A stretch of DNA of 64,000 bases, from the IMG/VR virus record IMGVR_UViG_3300046822_000192. One strand, given 5' to 3'. The DNA is from an uncultured virus (IMG/VR IMGVR_UViG_3300046822_000192) (lineage: Duplodnaviria; Heunggongvirae; Uroviricota; Caudoviricetes). Below, in pieces: positions 7,705-58,824 of the stretch. The notes under the pieces are model-generated. The model saw only the letters and a program-made list of their open reading frames with translations. It had not been told where the DNA came from and made no database searches. The translations under genes and the position numbers were made by a program. How positions within the stretch are numbered: the stretch's first letter is position 1; the number at the start of each line of letters is the position of its first letter.

Positions 7705-8321
7705 TTTCCCTCCAGTTCTTTCAAGGCCGACTTCCAGCAGTCGCATGGTCTTCCGCTATACCAAAACGAGCAAATCTCTGCATGTTCTCTCTCCTCGATA
7801 AACCTCCTCACCCTCGCCAACCGCTGCTCGGCCTTAACCAACTGCGGCGAATGGTGCATGCACACATCTCCGGGTTTGTCATAGGAGCACGCGCAACTTC
7901 CATGCGGGGCCAAGGACTTGACCTTCTCGGACATCGCTTCCGCTGACTTCTCGGCTTCGATGCTGCGGAGTAAGAACCCCTTACACTTCTCGTCGGCAAG
8001 TGCCTGCGATCCAGCCACTTGACCTGCGAGTTCGGTGACGCGGGATTCAGCTTTAACCGTTCGTAGTTGAAGCTCTTGGACGTTTATTAGCAAGTTCTCT
8101 TCGCAGCCCATAGACTCGTAGATATATTCAAGTTCTTCCAAGTAAGGCATCGCCTCTTTAATTTTGGATTCAGCCTGCTCCGCTTTGGCAACCGTATCGG
8201 CAATGGTAACTTGGATGTTTTTACGGAGAGCTTGGCATTTGGTGTCAGGCCAGCCTTGCGCACAGGAACAATGACGAACATGAACACTCTCTAACAACAG
8301 CATATTTAACTTTTCACTCAT
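7701..8321 (-). CDS. Coiled-coil hypothetical protein with C-terminal H..C..CxCWK module
   Basis: ORF track; overlaps downstream gene. Confidence 0.7.
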   Translation of the reverse strand: MSEKLNMLLLESVHVRHCSCAQGWPDTKCQALRKNIQVTIADTVAKAEQAESKIKEAMPYLEELEYIYESMGCEENLLINVQELQLRTVKAESRVTELAGQVAGSQALADEKCKGFLLRSIEAEKSAEAMSEKVKSLAPHGSCACSYDKPGDVCMHHSPQLVKAEQRLARVRRFIEEREHAEICSFWYSGRPCDCWKSALKELEGK

Positions 8322-16569: not shown

Positions 16570-16570
16570 G

Positions 16571-16852
16571 TCAGAACTTGTATACTAACCAACGTACAAA
16601 TTTACCCATTAGGGTTTGGCGTGGTTCGAAATTGCGAGCGTCCGGCCCGCATCTTGATATATTCTGCCGTTCGCTTGCGCAGGTATTGCAGTCACTTTCG
16701 GTCGTATCATAAGCAGCGCTGTAAGTAGGCCATTGTCCCGTGACTACGTTATTCGGATTACGAATCCGTTTTTTTGTAGTTGCACAAAACGCCTGATGAC
16801 TAAACAACGATTGTCTGAAATGTCGGCAGTCGATACAGAATTTTACTTGCAT
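16571..16852 (-). CDS. Cys-rich hypothetical protein
   Basis: CIDCRHF...C..ER...CGPDARNFEP. Confidence 0.7.
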   Translation of the reverse strand: MQVKFCIDCRHFRQSLFSHQAFCATTKKRIRNPNNVVTGQWPTYSAAYDTTESDCNTCASERQNISRCGPDARNFEPRQTLMGKFVRWLVYKF

Positions 16853-17097
16853 GTATGTACTTTGCGCACAGCCGCCTCAGACATTGGAACCCAGAGCCTG
16901 CCGTCCGGCGTAACCAGAACAATCTGTTTAAGATCGTCAGTATCTGTATCCATGAAACCGTCAGCGACCAGTAATGTATCACCCATACTGAGAATAGCCG
17001 ACACTCTCGGGCCAATTCCGGCTGATTTACGGGCCAGTGCAATCGCACTCGCAATACTGAATTTAGGTTTTTTTGATGTTGACAATTTTTTTGCCAT
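16843..17097 (-). CDS. Hypothetical protein, probably leaderless
   Basis: TTGACT-17-TATAAC ends 7 nt before ATG. Confidence 0.6.
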   Translation of the reverse strand: MAKKLSTSKKPKFSIASAIALARKSAGIGPRVSAILSMGDTLLVADGFMDTDTDDLKQIVLVTPDGRLWVPMSEAAVRKVHTCK

Positions 17098-17160
17098 GAG
17101 CTGTGTTATACTCCGTTCCGTTCGCGGAGTCAAGTCAAATCGAAAGGTTCCCTTTCTCGC

Positions 17161-19044: not shown

Positions 19045-20230
19045 AGCGTTTATCTGCGGTACAGATGTTCCAGACGGTTTATATAGACGGCACTACGACG
19101 CTGCTGCAATCAACTCTCCCATAACTGTGAAAAATATGCCAGCAACCTTGGCAGCGGTGAAAGGGCTGCTCAAGCGCGATGGTGTGTTGTGGGTCACGTA
19201 TCCAATAGCGCAGATACCCGCGAATGATATGGCAAAGGAATTGGAGACTGCAGGTTTCTTCGTTACTAATATCAAAATAACCGGTGAAACTGTAAGTATC
19301 TCCGCTATGCCCGAAGTGCGTATCGAAACGATTACCATCTACGGGCCTCCGGGAGTTGGTGATGTCATCTGGACACTAAATAAAGTTAGAGATATTCGCG
19401 AGCGTGAAGCTCCGTGCAAGATCTGCTATACCGTCTGTGCGAATAAGTTTGCCGGATCGCGATCGTTCGATCTACTCAATAATTGTGGATTGATTGATTC
19501 TTGCACCTTCGAAGAGTTGCCATTGCCACGCGGGCGTGTATGTCCGGATGTGAGTATGCCAATCTACAATCTCTTCGCTAACCCACATGTGGATGCGGGT
19601 ATTCCAGTGTCGGAATGGCTGCCGGAATATAAATGCGATTTCAACATTGAATTTGAATTACCGGAGATTGTCGAACGGCAGGTCAAAGCGCGAATGGGCG
19701 ACCGTAAATACGCAACAGTATATTTTTCTTCGAACGCCTGGAATCAGGAATGTACTGCCGGGCAAGCATGGACTCCCAAAGAATGGGCAGCGACATGTAT
19801 TTATCTTAGTAAACTAGGAATTAAACCGGTTGTACTAGGGCGCGAATGGGACGTCACCTATATTCACCGGGTCGCTGAAGAGATCATCGAAGCTGGCGAG
19901 AATCCGTCAAAAATCTGGATCAACATGGTAAGCAAGACTCCGCTGCTACTGGCGCTAGCTTTGATGAAGAATGCAGTTCTTACAGTAGGTAGCGGCTCCA
20001 GTGGTCTAACGATCACCGCAGCTTATTTAGGCTACAATGTACTGACTCTGTGGCCGAAGCCTGGAGTACTGCCGATCGAGCCATATTTGTGTACATTGAT
20101 TAAAGATGGCTTTTCTACGAAATGGATGCCGCCAGACGTCATGGCACGTGGAAAATATACCGCGTTACATTTTGGCGAATTCACGCTGGACGATGTCAAA
20201 CAAAATATCAATAGAATGGCGGGACTATAA
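19037..20230 (+). CDS. GT-B glycosyltransferase, GT9 (heptosyltransferase)-like
   Basis: PPGVGDVIW; C-terminal SGLTITAAYLG. Confidence 0.65.
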   Translation: MSRAFICGTDVPDGLYRRHYDAAAINSPITVKNMPATLAAVKGLLKRDGVLWVTYPIAQIPANDMAKELETAGFFVTNIKITGETVSISAMPEVRIETITIYGPPGVGDVIWTLNKVRDIREREAPCKICYTVCANKFAGSRSFDLLNNCGLIDSCTFEELPLPRGRVCPDVSMPIYNLFANPHVDAGIPVSEWLPEYKCDFNIEFELPEIVERQVKARMGDRKYATVYFSSNAWNQECTAGQAWTPKEWAATCIYLSKLGIKPVVLGREWDVTYIHRVAEEIIEAGENPSKIWINMVSKTPLLLALALMKNAVLTVGSGSSGLTITAAYLGYNVLTLWPKPGVLPIEPYLCTLIKDGFSTKWMPPDVMARGKYTALHFGEFTLDDVKQNINRMAGL

Positions 20231-20812
20231 ATGAATCTAACGGATCTGGCGATTAAATACAGCTCAGATAAATATTACAAGCACAGCTATATTCCAGTGT
20301 ATGAGAAGCTGTTCGCCGGGTTCACTCCGAAACGGGTGCTGGAGATCGGTATCGGCTACCCGGAATTGATGCAACGGCAACTTCCGGCTGATGTGGAGTG
20401 GAAGTCTGCATCTAGCTTACATATGTGGGCGGAATTGTGGCCGGATGCTGAAATCACCGGAGTGGATATTCGTGAAGATGTGTGTATCAATGAGGGGAAT
20501 ATTCGCAGCCTTGTTGTCGATCAGTCCAGCGCAGCCAGCTTGATGAAGCTATATGAATATGGTCCGTTCGACTTGATTATTGATGATGGCAGTCACCGGC
20601 AGTATGATCAGCTTCTAACGTCGCATATATTACTTCCGTGGTTAACCTATGCAGGTGTGTATGTGATCGAGGATGTATTACCGACACATGGAATATCACT
20701 AGCTGCAACTTGCGGAGGCTTGTATCTGAATCTGGGACGCTGTTACGACGATAATATGGTGGTGATTCCGGGAAGGGATTACCCGAGATACACCCGAGAG
20801 GATTTTATATGA
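20231..20812 (+). CDS. Class I SAM sugar O-methyltransferase-like
   Basis: SDK..HSY..YE, VLEIGI, FDLIIDDGSH, YVIED. Confidence 0.85.
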   Translation: MNLTDLAIKYSSDKYYKHSYIPVYEKLFAGFTPKRVLEIGIGYPELMQRQLPADVEWKSASSLHMWAELWPDAEITGVDIREDVCINEGNIRSLVVDQSSAASLMKLYEYGPFDLIIDDGSHRQYDQLLTSHILLPWLTYAGVYVIEDVLPTHGISLAATCGGLYLNLGRCYDDNMVVIPGRDYPRYTREDFI

Positions 20813-21450
20813 CAGTAGACCACAGCCTTGCGGACGTGAAGCTTCCAGATTTCATTGAATGGTGGACTCCGGAACGCATCGAAGCAGCCGTCGCAACATG
20901 GAAAGAACAGAAGGGTCATTTGGAGTTCTCCGGATGGATTCGCGGCGTCATGCGCAAATATCACCTGTCCTCTGTTATAGAACTGGGGTGCGGTGCAGGC
21001 TTCAATGGCGCGGAATTGGCGGAGTTCGACTATCTAGGTACAGATGGCAGTCCTGCAATGATTGCTGTAGCTAAGGAGCACAATCCTGAAGGCAAGTATG
21101 CGGTTGCAAATATCCGGAACTTGGAAGGGCGCTCTGCAGAACTATCGTGCTCGTTTGCTGTTCTCAAACATTTCAATGTGGAAGATCAGCGAGAGATTCT
21201 AACCAAGATGCTTGCGGCAGGCCGGAAGTACGCTCTGATTCACATTCAAGTCACAGACGGCCCAAGTATCAATATCCCAGAAGACTACAATCATACGTGG
21301 TTAAATCGTGACGACCTAGCAGATATCATCACGGCGGCTGGGTTCGAAATTATAGACATGCTAGGCTGCAAAACTAACGGCGATACTAGATGGGAAGGCG
21401 CAATTGTCATGAGGAGAATTGATGTCACTACTGACAATCACGGCGGCTAA
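20809..21450 (+). CDS. Class I SAM methyltransferase
   Basis: VIELGCGAG, GTDGSPAMI, AVLKH. Confidence 0.85.
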   Translation: MTVDHSLADVKLPDFIEWWTPERIEAAVATWKEQKGHLEFSGWIRGVMRKYHLSSVIELGCGAGFNGAELAEFDYLGTDGSPAMIAVAKEHNPEGKYAVANIRNLEGRSAELSCSFAVLKHFNVEDQREILTKMLAAGRKYALIHIQVTDGPSINIPEDYNHTWLNRDDLADIITAAGFEIIDMLGCKTNGDTRWEGAIVMRRIDVTTDNHGG

Positions 21451-22441
21451 TGCTTATCCAGGTTTCGTGCAGGTAGAGTTTATGTTGCGCAACTTGGCAG
21501 CGCAAACATACCGAGATTTTGAGCTTATTTTTCTGGATATTTCTTACGAAGAGAATAAAGCTGCAGTTGACGAATTGTCCAGACACTTAGGACTGCAAAA
21601 GGTTGTGCACATGCCTACCTGTAGAGCTAAGCATGTTGCTCAGCAGGTACATTGGGAACTGTTCAATAACAGTTTAGTGCTAGCGAGTAATCCCTGGATA
21701 CTACAATTTGGTATCTACAGATACATGCATCGTAGATCGGTAGAGATTGCTGTAGGATACATGCAACGTAATACATGTATCGTGTTTGCTCAGAATCCAG
21801 TAGACTATAGTACCCTATTATTACAAGACTACGATTTAATAGAAAGACTGAATGGGATGTCTATCGACACTAAACCATATCCATACTTAGCGCAATCTGG
21901 GTTTTTTTCAATTCCAAGGGATGTATTCATTGATCAGCTAAACGGCCATAGTGAACCGCTTACCGCGCATCATTGGGTAGACTGTGATTTGATGCAGCGT
22001 TCGCGTCACCTTCCATTGGAAGTCAGTTATATGGAAAGGGCGCTTTTGCGCATTTCTCGGCTGCCGGGGGATATGCGCTATCTCGGAGCGCGTACAGAAA
22101 AAGTAGTTTGTGCACCAGAATATTTAGACTGTCCGTGGAATATGTTTGCTGCAGCTAGTTATAAAGATAGCAACCTTCCAGAAAATCCCAACACATCGCA
22201 TATTATACACGCCGGGTATGAATGGTTACAATGCCGCCGCTGTGGGATATTAATTGTTGAACAACCAGAGAAGTTCGCATCTTATCTATTAACAAATAAG
22301 ATTGTGAAAGCTCCCATCAATCTTGGTGGAGTTGGCCGAAACCTGCGGATACTGGCAGACGATTTGCGCGGTAAAACAATTTCCGAAAAGACGCAGATTT
22401 TACGTGACAGTCATACAAATCCGAGGTATCTTAGCGCGTGA
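21422..22441 (+). CDS. GT-A (GT2-like) glycosyltransferase
   Basis: L..QTYRDFELIFLD; DCDLMQR. Confidence 0.7.
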   Translation: MSLLTITAANAYPGFVQVEFMLRNLAAQTYRDFELIFLDISYEENKAAVDELSRHLGLQKVVHMPTCRAKHVAQQVHWELFNNSLVLASNPWILQFGIYRYMHRRSVEIAVGYMQRNTCIVFAQNPVDYSTLLLQDYDLIERLNGMSIDTKPYPYLAQSGFFSIPRDVFIDQLNGHSEPLTAHHWVDCDLMQRSRHLPLEVSYMERALLRISRLPGDMRYLGARTEKVVCAPEYLDCPWNMFAAASYKDSNLPENPNTSHIIHAGYEWLQCRRCGILIVEQPEKFASYLLTNKIVKAPINLGGVGRNLRILADDLRGKTISEKTQILRDSHTNPRYLSA

Positions 22442-23433
22442 CAACAGCACGAATTCTCATACCGCCCGGTATTGGTGATATCTATTGGGTCCTCGTGAAG
22501 CTCCGCGCCTTTCTGAAATCTAAAGGTATCGACAGAGCCGAGCTGACAATGGTAACCGATCCGCACGAGCACGACTCGCATTTGAGAGCGCTGCCATACC
22601 TGCAGATGTTTGATTGGTTTGACGTTAGCGACATAGTCACAGTACCGAATGACCGGCAGAATGTGGATATCTGGCAAGAAGCATATCTCGGGCCAGGACG
22701 CTCTATCTTTGAAAATGTTCAGGGTTACGATTACTTTCTGTGCTATAACGGGCGTATCAATTCCGGTGGATTTATCGAGACGGATGAACTGGCATGCGAA
22801 TGGCAACCGCAAATGTCTCCTATCGCGGAGAAAGTAATTAATCAATATGCTGCCGAGTATGCCAGTCTCCCATCTTATTTCAAAGATCGTCCCGGCCAAG
22901 GCTATATGGTTCTGTTTTGGCCTTTCTATGGAGACCATCTGCACACATTGGCGGACTTCTCTATCAAAGAGATAGCCGAAGTATTGAATGCCTTCCGGGA
23001 TCGTACGCGCCTAATTCCTATATTCATTGGAGCGGCATTCGACAAGATCTACAATACAGCACTGCAGGATCTAGTCGATCTTGTACCATGTTCCTGTAAC
23101 TGGACCGGAGAATTAACGCTACATGAGACGCTTGGATTGATAAAGTCTGCCGGTATGGTAACTGGTTATCACTCCGGTATCACCAATCTTGCTGCCGCAA
23201 TGGGCGTCAAAACGTGCTTATTGTGGGGTGACAGGTATCCGAGTACTACCTCATGGGCCGTTGTTCCGCCAGACTCCCGAGGTACTAACTATCTAGCACT
23301 GGAGAGTGTTGGATTGGCAGCAGAGACGTATTTCTATACCTTAGCGGGGTTGTATGGCGGGCCTTTCATCGAAAAAATATCTCCACGTCCGGGCGATCCA
23401 TGGTATAAAGATCCGGCAATTGAAGGAGTTTAG
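22438..23433 (+). CDS. GT9-like glycosyltransferase, paralog of 19037-20230
   Basis: PPGIGDIYW; HSGITNLAAAMGVKTCLLW. Confidence 0.7.
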   Translation: MTTARILIPPGIGDIYWVLVKLRAFLKSKGIDRAELTMVTDPHEHDSHLRALPYLQMFDWFDVSDIVTVPNDRQNVDIWQEAYLGPGRSIFENVQGYDYFLCYNGRINSGGFIETDELACEWQPQMSPIAEKVINQYAAEYASLPSYFKDRPGQGYMVLFWPFYGDHLHTLADFSIKEIAEVLNAFRDRTRLIPIFIGAAFDKIYNTALQDLVDLVPCSCNWTGELTLHETLGLIKSAGMVTGYHSGITNLAAAMGVKTCLLWGDRYPSTTSWAVVPPDSRGTNYLALESVGLAAETYFYTLAGLYGGPFIEKISPRPGDPWYKDPAIEGV

Positions 23434-23434
23434 A

Positions 23435-24400
23435 TTGTTACCGACAGACCTACTACTTGAAGCGTACGAGCGGATGCTGACAATTCGCAGAGTTGAAGAG
23501 CGCATCGCAAAAGACTTTCTGGAGAATAAGATCTTCAGTTTCTATCACAGTTCTGCGGGCCAGGAAGCCGTGGCAGTTGGTGTCGCCCTGAATATGTCGG
23601 ATAACGATCGTATGTTCGGCAATCACCGCTCGCATGGGCACTATCTCGCCAAAGGTGGATCAATAAGTGGTCTATTTGCGGAGATCTACGGCAAGGCTAC
23701 AGGCTGCTGTAAAGGCTATGGCGGCTCAATGCATATGCTGGCTCGCGACAAAGGTTTCATGGGCACCACACCGATCCTGGGGAGTATAGCGCCCATCGGT
23801 ACTGGCAGCGCATTCCAACAGAAGGTTGCCGGTACAAAGGATGTTACTGTTGTGTTTGTCGGGGATGGCGCTACCGAAGAGGGTGCATTCTATGAGAGTG
23901 TGAACCTCGCAGCAACCATGAAACTTCCGATTGTATTTGTGATTGAAGATAATTTATATGCTGTCAATTCGCCGGAGTCTGCCCGGCGCTCACCGCTGTT
24001 TATTCGTAAGTTTGTTTACGAGGGTCTCGGTGCCCGCTACTTGATGTGCGACGGAAATGACTTCACAAATGTTTTCAGTCAAGCTGGCATGCTGATCAAA
24101 GCTGCGCGTAACGGTAAACCCGGCGTACTCTACGCTAGATGTTTCCGGCATATGTCGCACTCGGGACCGCTCAAGGATGAAAGTGTGCGTACTGTGGATA
24201 CGGAAGATGTTCGCAAGAAAAATGATCCTATCGAATTACTCCGGGATTCTATGCTGGAAGCCAGCATAGGAACTGTCGAAGATTTCGAATTGATCGACGA
24301 TCGGATTTCCGCGTACGCAGATTCTATCTTGAGTCAAGTTCCGGATCTACCGGTACGGCGCGGCACTGAGATTTTTGAAGGAGTCTATCATGACGCGTAA
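23435..24400 (+). CDS. TPP-dependent dehydrogenase E1 alpha-like subunit
   Basis: GQEAVAVG, HRSHGHYLAKG, GGSMH, GDGA..EG...N; TTG start after AAGGAG. Confidence 0.9.
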   Translation: MLPTDLLLEAYERMLTIRRVEERIAKDFLENKIFSFYHSSAGQEAVAVGVALNMSDNDRMFGNHRSHGHYLAKGGSISGLFAEIYGKATGCCKGYGGSMHMLARDKGFMGTTPILGSIAPIGTGSAFQQKVAGTKDVTVVFVGDGATEEGAFYESVNLAATMKLPIVFVIEDNLYAVNSPESARRSPLFIRKFVYEGLGARYLMCDGNDFTNVFSQAGMLIKAARNGKPGVLYARCFRHMSHSGPLKDESVRTVDTEDVRKKNDPIELLRDSMLEASIGTVEDFELIDDRISAYADSILSQVPDLPVRRGTEIFEGVYHDA

Positions 24401-25424
24401 ATTTACAGAAGCTATCCAGCTGGCTACACGGTCTGTTATGGAAGAGGATTCCAGTGTTCATGTTCTCGGACTTGGCGCAAACTATCCTAATGGTCTGGAC
24501 GGCACAATGGGTGATATTGCCGAGACCTTTCACGACCGTGTACATGATACACCTTGCAGTGAGAACGCTGTTACTGGTATGGCAGTAGGCATGGCAATCT
24601 CCGGTTTACGTCCGATCGTCCATCACGGACGAATCGAATTCGCTCTACATGCCATGGATCAGATTATCACGCAAGCTGCGAAGTGGAATTACATGTTCGG
24701 CGGGAACTATCCGTGTCCGTTGACGCTGCGCATTGCAATGGGCCGTCAATGGGGAAATGGACCGCAGCATACACTGTCCTATAAAGGGCTGTTCTCTGTA
24801 CCAGGACTTCAAGTAGTATGCCCATCCACCCCGCAGGCAGCATATTCGTTACTGCAAGCTGCTGTAGAGAATCCGAATCCGGTAGTATTTCTCGAATCAC
24901 GCTGGCTATACAAGACTCAAGGGACGATTATTAACACGTCCATGTTAATTAACAAGGCCATGATAATGCGCAGTGGTACAGACCTGACTATTGTGGCGGC
25001 AGGCGAGTTTGTCCTGGAAGCCTTACGTGCTGCAAAGGTACTTGGTGAGCATGGTATTTCGGTGGAAGTTATCGATCTTGTATCTGTCTACCCAATCGAC
25101 ATGGAGACTCTTCGCGAGTCTGTCGGTAAGACCGGCAAGTTGATGGTGATCGATTCTACATCCCAGTTTGCGATGGAAATTGCGGCGCGTGCCAATGTTC
25201 AAGGAGCTTCCGTGGTGACTCTGTCGTGTGTAGAATCGCCGTGCCCTACTGCTCCGTCTATGTCAGACTCGTACTATCCAACAGATCAGGATATTATCGG
25301 TGCGGTAAGCCAGTGGTTCGGTAAGTTTGATATCCCAGTCCTGGAAAAGACATTTGCGGAATTGAATCTTGCACCTACAGATAACTTTGACGAACTATAT
25401 GGAATCGATACAACGTCCGATTAA
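24390..25424 (+). CDS. TPP-dependent dehydrogenase E1 beta-like subunit
   Basis: DTPCSE, GLRPI, AMDQI, GPQH, NPVVFLE, EVIDL. Confidence 0.9.
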   Translation: MTRKFTEAIQLATRSVMEEDSSVHVLGLGANYPNGLDGTMGDIAETFHDRVHDTPCSENAVTGMAVGMAISGLRPIVHHGRIEFALHAMDQIITQAAKWNYMFGGNYPCPLTLRIAMGRQWGNGPQHTLSYKGLFSVPGLQVVCPSTPQAAYSLLQAAVENPNPVVFLESRWLYKTQGTIINTSMLINKAMIMRSGTDLTIVAAGEFVLEALRAAKVLGEHGISVEVIDLVSVYPIDMETLRESVGKTGKLMVIDSTSQFAMEIAARANVQGASVVTLSCVESPCPTAPSMSDSYYPTDQDIIGAVSQWFGKFDIPVLEKTFAELNLAPTDNFDELYGIDTTSD

Positions 25425-25749
25425 GCACGATAAGGGCTGGGGCTATGAATTGTGGATAGCCAATTCCCCGTTATACTGCGGTAAAGTTCTAGTGTTCAAT
25501 GCTGGCAAAGCCTGCAGCATGCACTTTCATCTTTTGAAACATGAAACATTCTTCCTGGAAAGTGGTCGTATTTCAGTGGAAATTCTGGAAGATGGAGTGC
25601 TTAGTACGCGACATATGGAGCCGGGGGATTCTATGGAGATTCCTCCCGGCACGATGCACAGAATTTGGGCAACTGAAGCAAGCCGCCTGTTCGAATTCAG
25701 TACGCAGCATTTCGAGACAGACAGCTATAGAATTGCGCGAGGCGATTGA
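25399..25749 (+). CDS. Cupin, sugar isomerase-like
   Basis: KGWGYE, CSMHFHLLKHETF, IPPGTMHR. Confidence 0.8.
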   Translation: MESIQRPIKHDKGWGYELWIANSPLYCGKVLVFNAGKACSMHFHLLKHETFFLESGRISVEILEDGVLSTRHMEPGDSMEIPPGTMHRIWATEASRLFEFSTQHFETDSYRIARGD

Positions 25750-26501
25750 TGTTATACCCGTGCGGTTCATCTAAACCGCCTAAAATAGAACACGGATCTC
25801 CGGCCAACAAAGGACAGGCATCACTGATCACAGGTGCCTCCAGCGGTCTCGGTCGCGAACTTTCCATTTTGTTTTCCAACATCGGCCATGTTATCCTCTC
25901 CGGCAGGAACAAAGTTGAGCTGGAAAAGACGGCAAGCTTATGCAAAGATCCTCACAACACGACATGCATTTACGGCGACTTGCACGACTCCGCAATTCAA
26001 GCACGCTTGGCGTATACTGGAGATTTGTACGGGATTCGATATCTGATTTTGTGCGCCGGTATCTACCAGCGAGCGCCGCTCATCGAATCGAGAATACTGT
26101 TACCCGGCCCGAGACATTCAATCGAACAGATGTTCGAGACCAACGTACTCGGTCACATTCAGCTTATTGAATCTCTGCATAATGTTCTGATACGCGGAGC
26201 TGTAGTCAATATCAACTCTCTCAGCGGGAAGTCATTTTCTCCCAGCGAGGCTGTCTATTCAGCTACCAAACACGCCATGGCTGGGTTCCTGAAAGCCTAC
26301 CGGATTGAGGCGCGTCATCGGCTTACTCGTGTGCTTGACGTGTTTCCTGGGGCTATCCAGACGCCAATGCTTGCCGGGCAGACGAACTATGAGAAAGCGA
26401 TGCTGCCGGTCGAGGTCGCCAAAACAATCTTCACAGTAGCTACCCTGGAATATCCGTCCTTGCAGATCGAAGAATTACATCTTGGAAGATTTATCTTGTA
26501 A
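25749..26501 (+). CDS. Short-chain dehydrogenase/reductase
   Basis: TGASSGLG, YSATK, PGAIQTPM. Confidence 0.9.
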   Translation: MLYPCGSSKPPKIEHGSPANKGQASLITGASSGLGRELSILFSNIGHVILSGRNKVELEKTASLCKDPHNTTCIYGDLHDSAIQARLAYTGDLYGIRYLILCAGIYQRAPLIESRILLPGPRHSIEQMFETNVLGHIQLIESLHNVLIRGAVVNINSLSGKSFSPSEAVYSATKHAMAGFLKAYRIEARHRLTRVLDVFPGAIQTPMLAGQTNYEKAMLPVEVAKTIFTVATLEYPSLQIEELHLGRFIL

Positions 26502-26533
26502 AGTGTTGTCAATTGTGATAACATTCTCTTCTC

Positions 26534-26764
26534 ATGTGGCGAAAAGGTGAAATCCCGATAGATCAAGCACAAGTTGTCGCGTTATTGAAAAGTCAGCAGG
26601 GTGATCAATCTCTGCGGGCGTTCTCCAGCCAGCTTGGCGTACAGCCTGCCTATCTCTGCCGTCTCTATCAAGGCACTAGACCGGTCAATACGACGGTGTT
26701 GGACTTTCTAGGTTACGAGCCGCAAATAATTTACACAAAGAAGTGGCGAAATGACAATTCATAG
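26534..26764 (+). CDS. Small HTH protein
   Basis: SLRAFSSQLGVQPAYLCRLYQG. Confidence 0.7.
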   Translation: MWRKGEIPIDQAQVVALLKSQQGDQSLRAFSSQLGVQPAYLCRLYQGTRPVNTTVLDFLGYEPQIIYTKKWRNDNS

Positions 26765-26942
26765 AAACGAAATTATGCATCATTATCTGTGCACGTGTGT
26801 ACGCTGCAGACCGTATTTGTATCACTATCCGTATCCACACTGGTTACCGTATCCGGTATATCCAGTGCCGGTGCCGGTCTGTGTTCCAATTCAAGTTCCA
26901 GTCCCAATATTCATTCCGGCGAGACCGGAGAGATGGAGATAA
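26751..26942 (+). CDS. Pro/Tyr-rich small protein
   Basis: YHYPYPHWLPYPVYPVPVPVCVP; fills gap between two genes. Confidence 0.5.
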   Translation: MTIHRNEIMHHYLCTCVRCRPYLYHYPYPHWLPYPVYPVPVPVCVPIQVPVPIFIPARPERWR

Positions 26943-26946
26943 AATT

Positions 26947-27639
26947 ATGGCAAAGAAGAGCATTAAAGTTGCGCCAAAACAGCGCGTGCTTGTAGATTTC
27001 ATTCAAGACCGTTCCGGTTCTATGTGCTCTACATGGAAGGATTGTTTGGGAGGGTTCGCCTCGTTTATCGAGGATCTGCGCAAGAATCCCGAAGTGGAAT
27101 ATCTTATTTCACTTACAGCATTTGATACCACTGTAGACAGAATCTACACAGCAATTCCATTGGGCAAAATCAACCCGGCTATTTTGGAAGATTACGGGCC
27201 GCGTGGCGGAACTGCTCTCTATGACGCTTTGGGAGACACGATTCTAGCAACAGAAACCGCTGAAAGTTTTGTTGACAAAGTCATCTATATCATTGTTACA
27301 GATGGCGAAGAGAATGCGAGCAGGCGCTTTGCAAAAGACATTGCATCGCTGGAATACCAGAGTCTCCACACTTTAATTGACCGGAAAATCCGGGAAGGTA
27401 AATCTACATTTCAGTATATCGGTGCACAGCCGGAGAGCTGGACGGATGCTAAGGCAATTGGATTGTCAGCCGGGCAGACCGTGCGGTATGATCTCGGAAG
27501 TACCGGTGCGATGTACGGGGCAATAGCGTCCGGAGTCAACAACTTCTCATGTTCAGCGTTCCGCTCGACACAGAGTATGACAGCCGACTTTGCAGATGAA
27601 ACACTGATCAAAGCTGCAAATCTCACTGTCAGTAAGTGA
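26947..27639 (+). CDS. von Willebrand factor A domain protein
   Basis: MIDAS DRSGS, GGTALYDA, IVTDGEENAS. Confidence 0.9.
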   Translation: MAKKSIKVAPKQRVLVDFIQDRSGSMCSTWKDCLGGFASFIEDLRKNPEVEYLISLTAFDTTVDRIYTAIPLGKINPAILEDYGPRGGTALYDALGDTILATETAESFVDKVIYIIVTDGEENASRRFAKDIASLEYQSLHTLIDRKIREGKSTFQYIGAQPESWTDAKAIGLSAGQTVRYDLGSTGAMYGAIASGVNNFSCSAFRSTQSMTADFADETLIKAANLTVSK

Positions 27640-53674: not shown

Positions 53675-54334
53675 GTGACTGATCTCGAAGAGAAACAATT
53701 CTTACAAGCGTTACGGGCTAGAATCGTAGCAGCAGCGGATCAATCAACATACGATCATCGCCCGTTTATGATCCCGGAAGTTGTGCAGAAATTCCCGCAC
53801 ATGTCAGACGAAGAACAGTTGCAATATTCGCGGTTCAAATTGGCAGTTGCACGTATACTGCAGCCGTATACGATCTATGAAGTTGGAGTTGGCTGGGGTG
53901 TATCGGCGCAGGCATTCCTTGAAGGATATCCGGACACTAAATTCTTCGGAATAGATAACATGGCTATGGGAGTTGACCCGAATAGGGCGGTTTTATATAA
54001 TCCCTTATTACCGTGCCGGGTTGTGGACTCTGCCGATCTGGATGAATTTGTACATCCAGACGGTCCAATCGATCTCTTGCACATCGACGGCGGGCATGCA
54101 CTAGAGCATAAAGCCGATGACATGGTCCGGGCATTTAAATCAAAACCTGAATGGATTCTGATTGATGACTGTCACGACGTCATGGTAGCTGCTGGCGTCT
54201 TTGCCGGGATCTACCGCGCCGGTCGTAACGCATTATCTATGATGTACTTCGAGAATTCACACACTGGAAATCTTTTGATCCACGCCAAGCGTAGAGAACC
54301 TGAATTTCGTGGCCTGGAATGTAAACGAGTTTGA
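53675..54334 (+). CDS. Class I SAM methyltransferase (Methyltransf_24-like)
   Basis: IYEVGVGWGVS, IDLLHIDGGH, ILIDD. Confidence 0.8.
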   Translation: MTDLEEKQFLQALRARIVAAADQSTYDHRPFMIPEVVQKFPHMSDEEQLQYSRFKLAVARILQPYTIYEVGVGWGVSAQAFLEGYPDTKFFGIDNMAMGVDPNRAVLYNPLLPCRVVDSADLDEFVHPDGPIDLLHIDGGHALEHKADDMVRAFKSKPEWILIDDCHDVMVAAGVFAGIYRAGRNALSMMYFENSHTGNLLIHAKRREPEFRGLECKRV

Positions 54335-54338
54335 AACA

Positions 54339-54911
54339 ATGCATATCAGTTATTCGGCAATGGATCGCTTCCTACAGTCTCGCTGCGGGCAGCCGTGGGA
54401 TAAAGTATACTCAGAAATACGCAAACGAGATCTCTTCACATTCTGGCGTAGAATGTACCCGCACGATCACCTGCCTGTAGCCGAGAAAACCTATACAGGT
54501 GCCGATGGACATATCTACGGGTGCGGATGGCAAGGAGTCCATCGTATCGGCGGGGCTAACTGGACACGATACAGCTTTTATGTCGATCAAGCTGGCATCC
54601 TGCGTAGCCGGGCTAAATTGCGATTGGAATATAAACGGGAACAATCGGCCAAAAGAACGGCCAAATCTGTCGATAGAATACCGGCTAGCGGAAACTGCAC
54701 ATACGTTAAAGAAAATGGAATCTGGTACTTGGAAACGAAATCCGTTCTTACTTACACCTATAGACATCCGGCCATAGATCCGGTCACGGGTGAAAAAAAC
54801 TCCAAGCTGGACACTGTCGATAAGATAATCGTTAGGAAAAAACAACTCAATAAAAAGGAATTGAAACAGTTATGTCAGATGCAATTGACTGTCTCGACAC
54901 GAACGAGATAG
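54339..54911 (+). CDS. Conserved hypothetical protein
   Basis: RFLQSRCGQPWDKVYSEI...FYVD..GIL. Confidence 0.7.
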   Translation: MHISYSAMDRFLQSRCGQPWDKVYSEIRKRDLFTFWRRMYPHDHLPVAEKTYTGADGHIYGCGWQGVHRIGGANWTRYSFYVDQAGILRSRAKLRLEYKREQSAKRTAKSVDRIPASGNCTYVKENGIWYLETKSVLTYTYRHPAIDPVTGEKNSKLDTVDKIIVRKKQLNKKELKQLCQMQLTVSTRTR

Positions 54912-55060
54912 TATGCCCATACTGCGGCTATGAATTTTCCGAATCATGGACATACTTTGAGTCCTCTGGTAATGAAGAAAAAATACAATGTCCAGAATGC
55001 GATCAAAAATTTACTTGTTCGCCAGACTACACTGTGACATACTACTCTCGTAAGTTATAA
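54872..55060 (+). CDS. Zn-ribbon protein
   Basis: CPYCG...CPEC. Confidence 0.75.
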   Translation: MSDAIDCLDTNEIVCPYCGYEFSESWTYFESSGNEEKIQCPECDQKFTCSPDYTVTYYSRKL

Positions 55061-55062
55061 AC

Positions 55063-55140
55063 GGGCGTGAGAATGGCTTCGACGGCAAGTAAGCCCTACA
55101 AGGAACTTGTCGGACGCGGGATCGATACCCGCCACGTCCA
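55063..55140 (+). ncRNA. Mini-tmRNA: tRNA-like domain only, no tag ORF
   Basis: Acceptor GGGCGTG/CACGTCC with G3.U70 and A73; stemless D-loop AGAATGGCTTCGAC; helix GGCAAGT/ACTTGTC; GGAC; T-arm GCGGG-ATCGATA-CCCGC. Confidence 0.85.
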
Positions 55141-55145
55141 CTTTT

Positions 55146-55259
55146 ATGATTGTCAAAGTCTATATGAGATCAGCAGATGATTGGAGTTACGAAGAATGGA
55201 TGGCAGCACAAACTCAAGAAGATCTTAATGAGGAAGATGAGCCAGGAACCTGCTTTTAA
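55146..55259 (+). CDS. 37-aa acidic peptide (MIVKVYMRSADDWSYEEW...)
   Basis: Short ORF; first 6 codons identical to the 55390 gene. Confidence 0.4.
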   Translation: MIVKVYMRSADDWSYEEWMAAQTQEDLNEEDEPGTCF

Positions 55260-55389
55260 AGGCATCTTAAATCACTTTATCTGCTTTTGAAAGCACTAAC
55301 GCTAATGGGCGAAACCTCATGACCACCTCACTCGTTGTTATGAGGCTGGTAGGCAGCGTGTACTTACCGGACCGGCTCAGGTAGGAAAT

Positions 55390-55779
55390 ATGATTGTCAA
55401 AGTCTATCGTAATCTCAAACACGGACGGTCGGCAGCCCCGCTGTATTCAGTATTATACAAAGGAAAAGTGATTGCCAGGAAACACAGAGTCCTACTCCGT
55501 GATGCGCATTTCATTGTCAATGAAGCTGGTAGGCGGCGTGTACTCGAAAGCGGACATAAAAATGTGCATGCTTTTGTCGTCGGAACCTTAACAAATGAAC
55601 ATGGATGTTTCGGTATAGATGCCGATGGAAATGATTTTAGAATGCGCGTAACTTACGACCCGCGAAAAGGCCCGCACTTCGTTACAGCAACGGCTCCGGT
55701 AGGAAGAATTGTAAAAAGTGCTCTCGGCGTACTGCTGAATGAGCGTGGTATCAGCGCCTGCTATCTGGAAACTGCTTGA
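55390..55779 (+). CDS. Conserved phage hypothetical protein
   Basis: VYRNL...VNEAGRRRVL..GHKNVHAFVVG...VTYDP; AGGA RBS. Confidence 0.8.
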   Translation: MIVKVYRNLKHGRSAAPLYSVLYKGKVIARKHRVLLRDAHFIVNEAGRRRVLESGHKNVHAFVVGTLTNEHGCFGIDADGNDFRMRVTYDPRKGPHFVTATAPVGRIVKSALGVLLNERGISACYLETA

Positions 55780-55979
55780 AATATATAAATCTGACAGTAC
55801 GCGATAATCTTCCAGAATCTAGCGTAGATGTCTACGATACAGATACAAAAGAGCTATTACGCAGATATCCTTTACATCTTATCCATTCTGGGTACTGGCA
55901 CGCTACACAGAACGACCTTGCTCGACTCGCCTCGGTACGTATACCAGACCGGCTCAACGAATGCAAACTCTGGTGCTGA
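55776..55979 (+). CDS. Hypothetical protein
   Basis: Overlaps upstream stop. Confidence 0.45.
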   Translation: MKYINLTVRDNLPESSVDVYDTDTKELLRRYPLHLIHSGYWHATQNDLARLASVRIPDRLNECKLWC

Positions 55980-55989
55980 AAATTTCTTG

Positions 55990-56017
55990 TTGACTTTGCC
56001 GGACGTTGTGGTATAGT
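55990..56017 (+). promoter_or_regulatory. sigma70-type promoter of leader + tRNA operon
   Basis: TTGACT-16-TATAGT with extended TG. Confidence 0.7.
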
Positions 56018-56148
56018 TCTTATCAATGCAGCAAACAAGCTGCAGAAACTTAAGCGTAAAAACGTCGCTATCAATGGCGTATTGGGTAAGGGCGGCACCG
56101 GCATATTTCCGGCCCGCCCGAACCGCTTAAGTTTGAAAAAGAGACGAT

Positions 56149-56274
56149 ATGAAGAACACATCTACAATTCGAACAGCAAGACTTCAGTCGTCACAGCTCC
56201 ATTCCTATCCACAGCACCCGCTGTTGCCTTGCTCGCAAAGCTGGCTGAGTTTACCTCAGTCCTTTAGCCTGTAA
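56149..56274 (+). CDS. Putative leader (attenuator) peptide of the tRNA operon
   Basis: MKNTSTIRTARLQSSQLHSYPQHPLLPCSQSWLSLPQSFSL; last 30 codons use only amino acids served by the array. Confidence 0.85.
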   Translation: MKNTSTIRTARLQSSQLHSYPQHPLLPCSQSWLSLPQSFSL

Positions 56275-56313
56275 GGCTAGCCTGCAAATCGGGCATATTC
56301 AAATTTAAATCAC

Positions 56314-56387
56314 GCTCCAGTAGTCCAATTGGCAGAGGCGTCTCATTCAAAATGAGAATGTTGGGGGTTCGAATCCCTTCTGGAGTA
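56314..56387 (+). tRNA. trnL: tRNA-Leu(CAA), short variable loop
   Basis: TCTCA-TTCAAAA-TGAGA; 5-nt V loop; A73. Confidence 0.85.
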
Positions 56388-56398
56388 TTAATTAGTTC

Positions 56399-56474
56399 CG
56401 GGCAGTAGCTCCAAATTTGGTAGAGCGGCAGATTGAAACCCTGCGCGTTGCTGGTTCGAGTCCAGCCTGCTCGA
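56399..56474 (+). tRNA. trnF: tRNA-Phe(GAA)
   Basis: Loop TTGAAAC; acceptor CGGGCAG/CTGCTCG. Confidence 0.85.
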
Positions 56475-56478
56475 CTTT

Positions 56479-56565
56479 GTCCTAGTAGACCCGTACGGCG
56501 CGGGGGCGCACTGTAAATGCGTTGTCCCTTTGTGGACCCAGTCGGTTCGATTCTGACCTAGGGCA
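56479..56565 (+). tRNA. trnY: tRNA-Tyr(GTA)
   Basis: GCGCA-CTGTAAA-TGCGT; long V arm. Confidence 0.9.
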
Positions 56566-56569
56566 CTTT

Positions 56570-56654
56570 GGAGAGTCCGGCATTGGTGCGCCAAGCACGT
56601 TGGAAGCGTGTGGCCGACTAAACTCGGTTAGAGATTCAATTTCTCTACTCTCCG
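56570..56654 (+). tRNA. trnS: tRNA-Ser(GGA)
   Basis: GCACG-TTGGAAG-CGTGT; long V arm; G73. Confidence 0.9.
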
Positions 56655-56657
56655 CTT

Positions 56658-56739
56658 GGTAACGCAGCCATTGGTGAAGCAAATTGTTTCGAAAACAGTG
56701 CTCCTCCGGGAGTTTAGAGTTCAAATCTCTACGTTACCG
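56658..56739 (+). tRNA. trnS: tRNA-Ser(CGA)
   Basis: ATTGT-TTCGAAA-ACAGT; long V arm; G73. Confidence 0.9.
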
Positions 56740-56828
56740 CTGCCCTTAATGGGACATGCACTCGTATCCTGTACCATCCGTATCCGCAAGGTCTGATGGT
56801 TGTGCCGGGAAAAAGCAGTGATATTTGA

Positions 56829-56916
56829 TGCCACGTGGCGGAATTGGCCCAACGCTCGCAGTACGTAACTGCGCAACCGATATATCGGTATGAAGTTTCG
56901 AACACTTCCGTGGCAA
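56829..56916 (+). tRNA. Atypical class II tRNA, identity undetermined (loop TACGTAA)
   Basis: TGCCACG/CGTGGCA; CGCAG-TACGTAA-CTGCG; long V arm; GAAGT-TTCGAAC-ACTTC. Confidence 0.75.
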
Positions 56917-56922
56917 GTTTTT

Positions 56923-57011
56923 GGAAGCATGGCTGAACGGCTAAAGCACCGGCTTTGAATACCGGCGAGACGTTGAGAGACGTCGTACGAGTTCGAATCT
57001 CGTTGCTTCCT
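56923..57011 (+). tRNA. trnS: tRNA-Ser(TGA)
   Basis: Loop TTTGAAT; long V arm; U73. Confidence 0.9.
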
Positions 57012-57015
57012 CTCT

Positions 57016-57100
57016 GGCCTTGTGGTGAAATTGGCAAACGCAGCAGCTTCAGAGGCTGCCGCTCATTACGAGCTTAAGGGTTCGATTCCCTTCAGGGCCA
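57016..57100 (+). tRNA. trnL: tRNA-Leu(CAG)
   Basis: GCAGC-TTCAGAG-GCTGC. Confidence 0.92.
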
Positions 57101-57103
57101 CTT

Positions 57104-57185
57104 GCTCTCATGCTGGAAATGGCAGACAGCTACGCCTGAGAAGCGTAGGTCGAGAGACGTAAGGGTTCGATTCCCTTTGAGAGCA
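57104..57185 (+). tRNA. trnL: tRNA-Leu(GAG)
   Basis: TACGC-CTGAGAA-GCGTA. Confidence 0.92.
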
Positions 57186-57190
57186 CTCAC

Positions 57191-57273
57191 GGTCCTGTGG
57201 CGGAATTAGGCAGACGCGCCAGACTTAGAATCTGGTGCCTTCGGGTGTGAGGGTTCGATTCCCTCCGGGACTA
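57191..57273 (+). tRNA. trnL: tRNA-Leu(TAG)
   Basis: CCAGA-CTTAGAA-TCTGG. Confidence 0.92.
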
Positions 57274-57276
57274 CTT

Positions 57277-57349
57277 GTACGGTTGCCGGAATGGTTAACG
57301 GGCTGGTCTGCAAAACCAGCTTCTAAGGGTTCGATCCCCTTACCGTACT
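57277..57349 (+). tRNA. trnC: tRNA-Cys(GCA)
   Basis: CTGGT-CTGCAAA-ACCAG; U73. Confidence 0.92.
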
Positions 57350-57352
57350 CTT

Positions 57353-57424
57353 AGGCGTGTAGTTCAGCGGCAGAACGGTTGCCTTTGAAGCAACTAGTCA
57401 TCGGTTCGAGTCCGATCGCGCCTT
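57353..57424 (+). tRNA. trnQ: tRNA-Gln(TTG)
   Basis: GTTGC-CTTTGAA-GCAAC. Confidence 0.9.
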
Positions 57425-57428
57425 CTTT

Positions 57429-57517
57429 ACGGACGTGGCTGAGTGGTCGAAAGCTCCGGATTCCAAACCCGGATGACTGTAATAGTCGCATCGTGTGTCC
57501 GAATCACACCGTCCGTG
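57429..57517 (+). tRNA. trnW: tRNA-Trp(CCA) with long variable arm
   Basis: Loop TTCCAAA; A1-U72, G73; 20-nt V region; T-loop TCCGAAT. Confidence 0.8.
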
Positions 57518-57522
57518 CTTAT

Positions 57523-57595
57523 GCCGAGGTAGCCTTAATGGTAGAGGTGGCGCACTGTGAATGCGTCTGTCAGAGTTCGAATCTCTGTCTCGGTA
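57523..57595 (+). tRNA. trnH: tRNA-His(GTG), no G-1, A73
   Basis: GCGCA-CTGTGAA-TGCGT. Confidence 0.9.
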
Positions 57596-57599
57596 CTTC

Positions 57600-57687
57600 G
57601 GAAGAGTGTCCGGAATTTGGTCAACGGACCTGACTGCTAATCAGGCGACGAGTAATCGTCATGGAGGTTCGAGTCCTCTCTCTTCCG
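57600..57687 (+). tRNA. trnS: tRNA-Ser(GCT)
   Basis: CCTGA-CTGCTAA-TCAGG; long V arm; G73. Confidence 0.92.
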
Positions 57688-57695
57688 CTTTTAAT

Positions 57696-57780
57696 GCCCT
57701 TGTGGTGGAATTTGGTAGACGCGGTCGGCTTAAACCCGGCTATCCTTCGGGATATCACGGTTCGAATCCGTGCAGGGGCA
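57696..57780 (+). tRNA. trnL: tRNA-Leu(TAA)
   Basis: GTCGG-CTTAAAC-CCGGC. Confidence 0.92.
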
Positions 57781-57785
57781 CTCAT

Positions 57786-57861
57786 CGTGACGTATAGAAG
57801 TCTGGTTTTTCTAACCGGTCCTGGAAACCGGCAAGCGCAGGTTCGAATCCTGCCGTCACGA
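57786..57861 (+). tRNA. trnP: tRNA-Pro(TGG), C33 and A37
   Basis: CCGGT-CCTGGAA-ACCGG; C1-G72, A73. Confidence 0.85.
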
Positions 57862-57866
57862 CTTAT

Positions 57867-57942
57867 AGCGTAGTGCGGAAGTCTGGTCATCCTTCCTGCT
57901 TCGGAAGCAGGCAATTCGTGGGTTCAAATCCCACCTACGCTA
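57867..57942 (+). tRNA. trnP: tRNA-Pro(CGG)
   Basis: CCTGC-TTCGGAA-GCAGG. Confidence 0.88.
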
Positions 57943-57946
57943 CTAT

Positions 57947-58019
57947 GGGGGCATAGCAAAGTCTGGCAATGCATCCGGCTCTGACCCGGACATCGGAGGT
58001 TCAAATCCTTCTGCCCCTT
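57947..58019 (+). tRNA. trnQ: tRNA-Gln(CTG)
   Basis: TCCGG-CTCTGAC-CCGGA. Confidence 0.9.
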
Positions 58020-58045
58020 CTTACACTAACTGCCTACGATAATTT

Positions 58046-58285
58046 TCACTTCGTACGACCTCCAGAGTCTTTCGCATCCATATTCTTTTCGATATTCTGC
58101 ATCAAATCGCGAAGTTCCTGAAATTTACGTTTAATCACGCGTACTTCCATGTAATTTTTAGGCGCACAAAGGCAATCTTTTTGGCGCAGCACACGCGCCT
58201 GAGCGGTTGAAAGATCCTTAAATAGAATCTTGTAAGCCTTATCGGCGGATTCTTCCAGTGATTTCAAATCGTGAATATCCAACAT
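58046..58285 (-). CDS. Hypothetical protein, probably leaderless
   Basis: TTGACA-18-TAGCCT ends 6 nt before ATG. Confidence 0.6.
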   Translation of the reverse strand: MLDIHDLKSLEESADKAYKILFKDLSTAQARVLRQKDCLCAPKNYMEVRVIKRKFQELRDLMQNIEKNMDAKDSGGRTK

Positions 58286-58334
58286 GCGGAGAGGCTAGCA
58301 TGAAACTAGCGTAAATGTCAATGGGGGCAGCGAA

Positions 58335-58357
58335 GAGTGATGCCGTAGGCATCACTC
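58335..58357. repeat. Perfect 10-bp hairpin flanked by GGGGGCA direct repeats
   Basis: GAGTGATGCC-GTA-GGCATCACTC. Confidence 0.9.
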
Positions 58358-58824
58358 GGAGCGGGGGCAATACATATATATTACATGTAGATAGTACCTC
58401 CCCTACTCGCAGGTCCCAAGTACGTGCGACAGGCAGACATAAACAAACTATCCGGCTCTTGAATTGAATTTACTTCCCACTGCGAGTTGATGAGAAGTGC
58501 TTGCCTCGATACCGCAAGTTTCGATGGACTGGCGGCACAAGAGTAGGGCCTCGTTGTCCCATACTCCTTTTCAAGTATCACATCTGGCAGCTTACAAACA
58601 CGCCAGAGTTGCGTAAATAGTTATACTAGCGAAATATCGATATTGTTGTTCTTTGCCAGCGTTTCATTTTGCTCCATATATTTCGTTAATGGTGCTCGAC
58701 GTTCACAGGCAGCAACGTCGATTTCGGGTACATTGCCCGCAATAAATTTTGTATTCGTGATTGCACTTCATTTGTGGATACGCTGAGGATTCTAACACGC
58801 CAGCCGGACTCTCAAAATTTTTAT

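Follow-up and report, generated by a model that had tools for sequence, protein, structure and literature searches.

Why phages carry tRNA genes has long been debated, with codon compensation, host shut-off, and counter-defence as the proposed answers. An uncultured tailed phage, IMG/VR record IMGVR_UViG_3300046822_000192, raises this question in a particular form: the 64-kb stretch analysed here (the window) contains a dense array of 19 tRNA genes that serve only nine amino acids. What holds these nine together? We found that the array is preceded on the same strand by a 41-codon open reading frame (ORF), the leader, whose last 30 codons are restricted to the same nine amino acids. We propose that leader and array form a leader-gated tRNA operon, in which the output of the array is coupled to the decoding of the array's own codons; on balance we lean towards this explanation, by no means with certainty.

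To the 64-kb window we added 15.6 kb past its right end, taken from a near-identical IMG/VR fragment (G003, which spans window 31902–64000 and 15.6 kb further right), for a total of 79.6 kb. A second near-identical IMG/VR fragment (G001) spans window 7644 to ~56650. Three long phage contigs obtained with an AAA protease query (G004, G005, and G008) have 3 of 99 ORFs in common with this phage and were therefore not taken as relatives.

Composition of the tRNA gene array

ARAGORN at its default setting detected 17 tRNA genes in the whole window, every one at 56314–58020 on the plus strand, and a relaxed threshold added Ser GGA (56570–56655) and Ser CGA (56658–56740), giving 19 genes on one strand. 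An initial annotation, made from the letters of this DNA, had listed 18 anticodons. All 18 were present (two at the relaxed threshold), and the 19th gene, with anticodon CGU, is its "non-canonical Thr". The gathering score of the Rfam tRNA model was reached by 15 of the 19 genes and by nothing else in the window. The four genes below the cut-off (Tyr GUA, Ser GGA, Ser CGA, and the CGU gene) all have 7-bp acceptor stems according to ARAGORN. Among their minimum free energy (MFE) folds, those of Tyr GUA and of the CGU gene were cloverleaves with a long extra arm, that of Ser CGA came close to a cloverleaf, and that of Ser GGA was different. The genes, in order, are as follows.

56314..56387, + strand: tRNA with anticodon CAA, class I (ARAGORN; Rfam, 54 bits)
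56399..56475, + strand: tRNA-Phe GAA (ARAGORN, Rfam)
56479..56566, + strand: tRNA-Tyr GUA, long arm (ARAGORN; under the Rfam cut-off)
56570..56655, + strand: tRNA-Ser GGA, long arm (relaxed ARAGORN only)
56658..56740, + strand: tRNA-Ser CGA, long arm (relaxed ARAGORN only)
56741..56828, + strand: 88-nt spacer, the sole long gap, unstructured (fold z = 0.13)
56829..56916, + strand: tRNA-like CGU gene, long arm (ARAGORN, MFE fold)
56923..57012, + strand: tRNA-Ser UGA (ARAGORN, Rfam)
57016..57101, + strand: tRNA-Leu CAG (ARAGORN, Rfam)
57104..57186, + strand: tRNA-Leu GAG (ARAGORN, Rfam)
57191..57274, + strand: tRNA-Leu UAG (ARAGORN, Rfam)
57277..57350, + strand: tRNA-Cys GCA (ARAGORN, Rfam)
57353..57425, + strand: tRNA-Gln UUG (ARAGORN, Rfam)
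57429..57518, + strand: tRNA with anticodon CCA, class II (ARAGORN; Rfam, 50.5 bits)
57523..57596, + strand: tRNA-His GUG (ARAGORN, Rfam)
57600..57688, + strand: tRNA-Ser GCU, reader of AGY (ARAGORN, Rfam)
57696..57781, + strand: tRNA-Leu UAA (ARAGORN, Rfam)
57786..57862, + strand: tRNA-Pro UGG, C33 (ARAGORN, Rfam)
57867..57943, + strand: tRNA-Pro CGG (ARAGORN, Rfam)
57947..58020, + strand: tRNA-Gln CUG, last gene of the array (ARAGORN, Rfam)

The 19 genes lie within 1,707 nt (~11 per kb), separated by spacers of 2–11 nt with the one exception of 88 nt. The array is thus a phage tRNA gene cluster as defined in PMC6409571 (at least 15 genes, at least 2 per kb, in a viral genome). The amino acids served are Phe, Leu, Ser, Tyr, Cys, Trp, Pro, His, and Gln; every codon of these nine is readable, and the isoacceptor sets of Leu, Ser, and Gln are complete. 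A purine stands at anticodon position 36 (R36) in 17 of the 19 genes, the exceptions being Ser GCU and the CGU gene. Given our own tally of ~43 bacterial anticodons, 20 of which have A or G at this position, at least 17 R36 anticodons among 19 have a hypergeometric p of 3.7e-7, and the restriction is real rather than a product of chance. These results bear out the initial annotation, which had described a set limited to pyrimidine-start codons plus Ser AGY, with complete Leu and Ser sets and with Arg excluded.

No Lys, Met, Ile, Asn, Val, Ala, Asp, Glu, Gly, or Arg tRNA was found in the window (ARAGORN, Rfam) or in the 15.6 kb from G003, in agreement with the gaps noted in that annotation; the sequence flanking the array, 56 kb on the left and 21.6 kb on the right, contains no tRNA gene. 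Since the set takes in every Ser tRNA, even the AGY reader, and leaves out every Arg tRNA, its membership appears to follow the amino acid, without strict regard to codon row.

A long variable arm is present in 12 of the 19 genes. Position 37 is A in all 19, even in the readers of Leu CUN and Pro codons, as it is in Pro and Leu tRNAs of G004, G005, and G008. A full CCA end is encoded by no gene, and in most a single C follows the discriminator base; therefore, the CCA end must be completed post-transcriptionally. Recent duplication or shared origin of the array tRNAs was considered and left no sign, with identities of at most 73% between members and at most 75% to the tRNAs of G004, G005, and G008.

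A codon-matched leader upstream of the array

The region upstream of the first tRNA gene contains the following features.

55990..56017, + strand: candidate sigma-70-like promoter, TTGACT-16 nt-TATAGT, with TG before the -10 (consensus match only)
56025..56148, + strand: 5′ untranslated region, structured, including a GC-rich hairpin (MFE fold)
56149..56274, + strand: leader ORF, 41 codons, ATG to TAA, ending 39 nt before the first tRNA gene
56182..56271, + strand: test run of 30 codons, only F/L/S/Y/C/W/P/H/Q (six-frame scan)
56226..56277, + strand: long hairpin containing the leader's stop codon and the 15 codons before it (fold; no U run)
56280..56294, + strand: small hairpin (5 bp), then an A/U-rich tract; weak terminator candidate (fold; no U run; not called in the terminator scan)

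The predicted leader product is MKNTSTIRTAR, then LQSSQLHSYPQHPLLPCSQS, then WLSLPQSFSL, and an in-frame TGA lies 5 codons upstream of the ATG. Not only are the last 30 codons restricted to the nine amino acids of the array, but all nine occur among them. This run was the longest of its kind among 159,240 codon positions in the six frames of the 79.6 kb, where the runner-up had 19 codons and the expected number of runs of at least 30 was 1.3e-6. A hand calculation with the run's own base composition gave a chance of ~5e-8 per position. The run ends 42 nt before the first tRNA gene on the same strand.

The match extends to details of the set. As in the array, Ser AGY codons are present (three) and Arg CGN codons are absent. 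Strict wobble reads 28 of the 30 codons, and the remaining two, both CCT, need four-way U34 reading by the UGG tRNA. Every one of the 18 canonical tRNAs has a codon in the run, an outcome seen in 5.3% of random 30-codon draws (mean, 15.3 tRNAs sampled). Each amino acid is represented by 1–8 codons scattered over the 30 positions. The leader thus has two features of leader-peptide attenuators, namely a short upstream ORF on the same strand and codons cognate to the regulated product. Because the upstream 30-codon run uses exactly the nine amino acids of the array, these results support the view that the array is a deliberate unit.

Promoter candidate, RNA folding, and proposed mechanism

The promoter candidate, located 125–130 nt upstream, matches the consensus at 10 of 12 positions and is tied best of 10 sites in 54800–58800 (shuffled sequences gave 4.5 +/- 2.3 sites). 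It is the only one of the 10 with TG before the -10, as in an extended -10 element. Neither this candidate nor the 5′ region is repeated elsewhere in the 79.6 kb. The RNA from 56025 to 56320 folded with an MFE of -97.5 kcal/mol (z = -5.45), and 0 of 200 shuffles were as good. A long-range helix closing the leader domain was also considered and was discarded, being lost in G003. The leader is C-rich and G-poor, with a C/G ratio of 1.9–2.4 in 78-nt windows starting at 56145–56185, which also follows trivially from the codon choice.

According to our proposal, the promoter-like site, the folded 5′ region, the 41-codon leader, the 39-nt spacer, and the 19 packed tRNA genes would constitute one transcription unit. 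A ribosome on the leader would test the supply of exactly those tRNAs that the operon encodes, and we infer that translation of the leader is coupled to how the array is transcribed or processed. On the model of amino-acid operon leaders and of tnaC-type control, slow decoding would raise output, so that the tRNAs would be made when the host supply falls owing to host shut-off or a tRNA-cutting defence. We favour a version based on Rho-dependent termination, in which a stalled ribosome may mask the Rho loading site, because the leader RNA is rich in C, poor in G, and not followed by an intrinsic terminator; these are the sequence features of tnaC-type Rho-dependent control. Both the direction of the response and any RNA element acting as the switch are putative.

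A more specific form of this proposal is that the leader is a nine-amino-acid decoding gauge: depletion of tRNAs by a defence or by phage shut-off would slow ribosomes and turn on the full replacement set, including the long-arm reader of the Trp codon. We put this forward tentatively, as a possibility that is rather doubtful at present. If true, such a depletion-sensing leader would fit a counter-nuclease role of the array.

Several observations weigh against leader control. The sequence AAGAG, 6 nt before the ATG, gave a Shine–Dalgarno pairing energy of -2.9 kcal/mol, which was matched by 43% of random positions (the median of this phage's genes is -3.5). The leader was identical in G001, G003, and contigs of four further sequencing runs, and therefore offers no covariation to use, and the leader peptide had no homologue in a protein collection search. 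The terminator scan called no intrinsic terminator at 56149–56313, between leader and tRNAs, and no terminator/antiterminator pair overlapping the leader, as attenuators have, was found. The sole terminator-like site in 54800–58800 falls inside tRNA-Phe, with 3.8 +/- 1.9 sites in shuffled sequences. In folds with ribosome-covered positions masked, a ribosome at the stop codon removed the hairpin at 56280–56294, and stalled ribosomes left it intact; if this hairpin terminates transcription, fast translation would favour read-through, opposite to the direction that we favour. In G005 and G008, no matched run of at least 8 codons was present within 1 kb upstream of eight tRNA clusters, and no enriched windows preceded their arrays. 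Finally, the 79.6 kb examined are part of an estimated ~118 kb, with ~38 kb outside coverage.

The codon-matched leader before the array is the new finding here, and it suggests leader-peptide control if the leader functions as proposed. If this is true, leader-peptide control, so far a matter of amino-acid and synthetase genes, would reach tRNA genes as well, and nine amino acids in a single leader. It would also mean that at least some phages gauge decoding capacity and respond to it, and tRNA arrays would gain a demand-driven logic.

Strain variants and unusual tRNAs

The array of G003 consists of 15 tRNA genes, without GGA, CGA, CGU, and CAG, and an HNH endonuclease ORF separates its Leu UAG and Cys genes (contig ~24930–25400). 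In G001, a different HNH ORF follows the CAA tRNA (L011 1607–2371), and the Phe and Tyr genes are divergent. The tRNA genes flanking the HNH insertions are only 73–80% identical to those of the window. The insertions with their divergent flanks look like exchange driven by homing endonucleases. In the contigs of the four further DNA runs, segments of the array were skipped and replaced. The array is a mosaic hot spot, and the limit to nine amino acids was kept in each variant read (the 15 genes of G003 and the four reached by G001). One contig of run X3 carries paired G>C and C>G changes, nine bases apart, at 57134/57135 and 57143/57144 in the extra-arm region of tRNA-Leu GAG, which look compensatory.

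Three members of the array combine a body and an anticodon outside the textbook classes, which bears on recognition by synthetases. The CAA tRNA (74 nt) has a short variable loop of class I and A73. Its stems show compensatory changes between the window and G003, which therefore point to a working tRNA. Class I tRNAs with a Leu anticodon (CAA or UAA) are a recurring feature of cultured phages of Gordonia, Rhodococcus, Streptomyces, Mycobacterium, Cronobacter, and Pectobacterium, where the genes are annotated as tRNA-Leu, such as the 76-nt tRNA-Leu(caa) of Rhodococcus phage Francesca. G004 also has a short tRNA with a Leu anticodon at 105907–105983.

The CCA tRNA (90 nt) has a long arm of class II, a Ser-like D arm, A1-U72, G73, and C at T-loop position 55. 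We take A1-U72 and G73 to be Trp identity marks. This tRNA (57429–57518) had no match in 50,697 phage records, and it is the sole reader in the array of the leader's TGG codon. The third gene, with anticodon CGU, has the anticodon loop UACGUAA with A33, an A73, and a Leu-like body and D arm. It may be decaying or serve in another role, since it is missing from G003 and the leader has no ACG codon. Position 33 is not U in two genes of the array, A33 in this gene and C33 in Pro UGG.

Alternative explanations for the nine-amino-acid set

Leader control was weighed against three other explanations. According to the first, the array is one half of a split, constitutive, and near-complete tRNA set, the other eleven amino acids are served by a second array, and the ORF is irrelevant or encodes a small protein. 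We regard this as unlikely. There is space for a second array, as G001 and G003 were rated 41–42% complete at 48–50 kb, which implies a genome of ~118 kb, and the caution in the initial annotation that other tRNAs may lie outside the window still applies to the roughly one third of the estimated genome beyond coverage. Published clusters of at least 15 tRNA genes mostly cover 16 of 20 isotypes, and some phages have 16–17 tRNAs outside the main cluster (PMC6409571). Split sets were also seen in the comparison contigs. In the unrelated 132-kb G005, 14 of the 15 genes of a cluster at 53690–55992 are GNN readers and the other is Cys, and Tyr, Leu, Pro, Phe, Ser GCU (AGY), and Met are in clusters at 84212–92079, 28 kb away; therefore, splitting by codon row with complementary clusters does occur. 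In G008, the tRNAs lie in three regions.

However, a split set leaves the 30-codon match, expected at ~1e-6 by chance, without explanation, and the flanks of the array (56 kb and 21.6 kb) contain no trace of a second tRNA group. Moreover, a second array is compatible with leader control, from which the split set differs only in denying the leader a role. We think it most likely that the nine amino acids are the share of one operon in a larger tRNA complement, and we give roughly even odds to a second array in the third of the genome beyond coverage.

The second explanation, suggested in the initial annotation, is that the nine amino acids correspond to the substrates of a single host defence that cuts tRNAs, for instance one recognizing purine 36 or long-arm tRNAs, the phage copies replacing the tRNAs that are cut. 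The shares of long-arm and R36 genes in the array (12 and 17 of 19) fit this idea, as do the unusual loops with A33 (CGU gene) and C33 (Pro UGG), and a leader sensing these codons would suit a depletion alarm. In addition, human SLFN11 reportedly cuts type II tRNAs. On the other hand, Arg CGN readers have G36 and yet are absent, and we know of no nuclease with this nine-amino-acid range. The targets of PrrC, PARIS, the retron effector, and colicins are Lys, Tyr, Arg, Asn, Asp, and His, mostly outside the set of the array. That phage tRNAs counter tRNA nucleases has been proposed or shown (PMC10264068, PMC11464382, PMC11555353). However, a bacterial Schlafen is described as targeting Lys, Met, Val, Phe, and Ile (PMC13056530), and the targets of VapC, PrrC, and the colicins given in PMC10264068 differ from the set. 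The latter paper also reports that mycobacteriophages avoid Ser GGA, UGA, and CGA, all of which this array carries. Taken together, we consider a single nuclease an improbable cause of the set.

The third explanation, compensation for codons used more by the phage than by the host, is the classical view of phage tRNAs (PMC10264068). The GC content of the phage is ~48%. Codon usage was counted over 20,046 codons in ORFs of at least 120 aa and was nearly flat (Leu codons 0.11–0.22, Ser codons 0.14–0.20, GC content at third positions 0.47). The nine served amino acids account for just 35% of the codons, and a module-specific amino-acid demand was discarded, since the share was 34–36% in each genome module. 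Codons ATA, AGA, AGG, and AAA are typically rare in hosts; their readers are not in the array, whereas readers of CTG, CCG, and CAG are. Compensation is therefore a poor explanation of whole isoacceptor sets, flat usage, and missing rare-codon readers, as the initial annotation had surmised when it doubted phage codon bias as the cause, and we give it hardly any credence.

The phage and other features of its genome

The window encodes a large terminase, portal, capsid, decoration protein, 1,557-aa tape measure, and tail tube (PHROGs), and its source is a novel soil siphovirus-like phage. The nearest cultured phages reach 35–39% identity at most, in the portal and capsid proteins. DNA of the locus was found in soil and rhizosphere metagenome runs, with no RNA run among the sequencing runs that carry it. 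Searches for further sequence gave little: the exact pattern of the window's left end had no match in viral or metagenome contigs, the right-end pattern of G003 matched G003 alone, and an exact junction pattern from the array had 0 matches in viral contigs. A query with the N-terminal part of the DNA polymerase found no near-identical contig among metagenome contigs (best, 60% identity in a 3.6-kb contig) or viral contigs, and a portal protein query against genome contigs returned a single weak match.

Between the portal and tail genes lies a metabolic gene block (window 15559–27639, + strand) encoding a zinc alcohol dehydrogenase-like protein, a fused methyltransferase-glycosyltransferase, more methyltransferases, a cysteine dioxygenase-like protein, and a FabG-like reductase. 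At window 818–4067 on the minus strand are genes for a ClpX/ClpB-like AAA protein and a ribose-phosphate pyrophosphokinase-like protein, and the same stretch includes a nucleotidyltransferase-like ORF at 2185–2790. At the right end of G003, an ORF (L030 6732–8147) that extends past the contig end fuses a uracil-DNA-glycosylase-like domain to a family A DNA polymerase 3′-5′ exonuclease domain.

An 81-nt tRNA-like element (window 55063–55143, + strand), present in G003 too, scored 57.5 bits against the Rfam tmRNA model (cut-off, 47), the match being limited to the two ends of the model. It lies directly 3′ of a small zinc-ribbon ORF (54872–55060) and has an acceptor stem with G3-U70, A73, and a tmRNA-like T arm, without an anticodon loop; a T run follows. 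G3-U70 and A73 are presumably alanine-type marks.

Among the comparison contigs, G008 carries a 92-nt long-arm tRNA with anticodon UAU (6681–6772) and a permuted tmRNA gene (7402–7801), both beside a tRNA cluster. One leader candidate in G005 (88439–88501) was rejected as weak, since 57 of 265,170 windows scored as well and the Ser codon in it does not match the Ser tRNA of the cluster.

Comparison with known systems

A full-text literature search found no description of leader- or ribosome-mediated control of phage tRNA genes. A likeness exists with the enterobacterial leader-peptide attenuators (thrL, ilvL, hisL, and pheL), which share with the present locus a short upstream ORF on the same transcript and codons relevant to supply. 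Multivalent leaders exist, for Thr and Ile or for Leu, Val, and Ile, and attenuators govern amino-acid operons and pheST. In contrast to these systems, the genes that would be regulated here encode tRNAs rather than enzymes, nine amino acids are spread over the leader instead of one to three in tandem runs, and no terminator/antiterminator pair accompanies it. The Rho-dependent leaders tnaC, mgtL, and toiL resemble this locus in having a leader ORF, no intrinsic terminator, and C-rich, G-poor RNA. They sense one ligand, proline, or antibiotics and control mRNAs, whereas here tRNA genes follow the leader and Rho dependence is putative.

Phage tRNAs are also known from counter-defence: the tRNA-Lys of T5 acts against PARIS, and tRNA-Tyr acts against retron effectors. 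As in those cases, the tRNAs of this array may stand in for host tRNAs that are possibly depleted. Those phages counter a known nuclease with a single matching tRNA or a small number of them, in contrast to the complete nine-amino-acid set of this array. Counter-defence tRNAs that vary in the anticodon loop are described in PMC10264068.

The phage clusters surveyed by Morgado and Vicente in 2019 (PMC6409571) are likewise dense clusters in tailed phages, and HNH genes, found here in the strain variants, are a further likeness. Since published clusters of at least 15 genes mostly cover 16 of 20 isotypes, the present nine, with one odd gene in addition, are unusual. A counterpart in behaviour is the trn operon of Anabaena PCC 7120, a horizontally mobile array of 23 functional tRNAs which, according to PMC8421152, is silent until translation is impaired, is then induced 100- to 1000-fold, and aids survival. 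Both would provide a spare tRNA set on demand, although the route in Anabaena differs, running through promoter repeats (same source). The induction of the Anabaena array by translational stress means, therefore, that demand-driven tRNA arrays exist.

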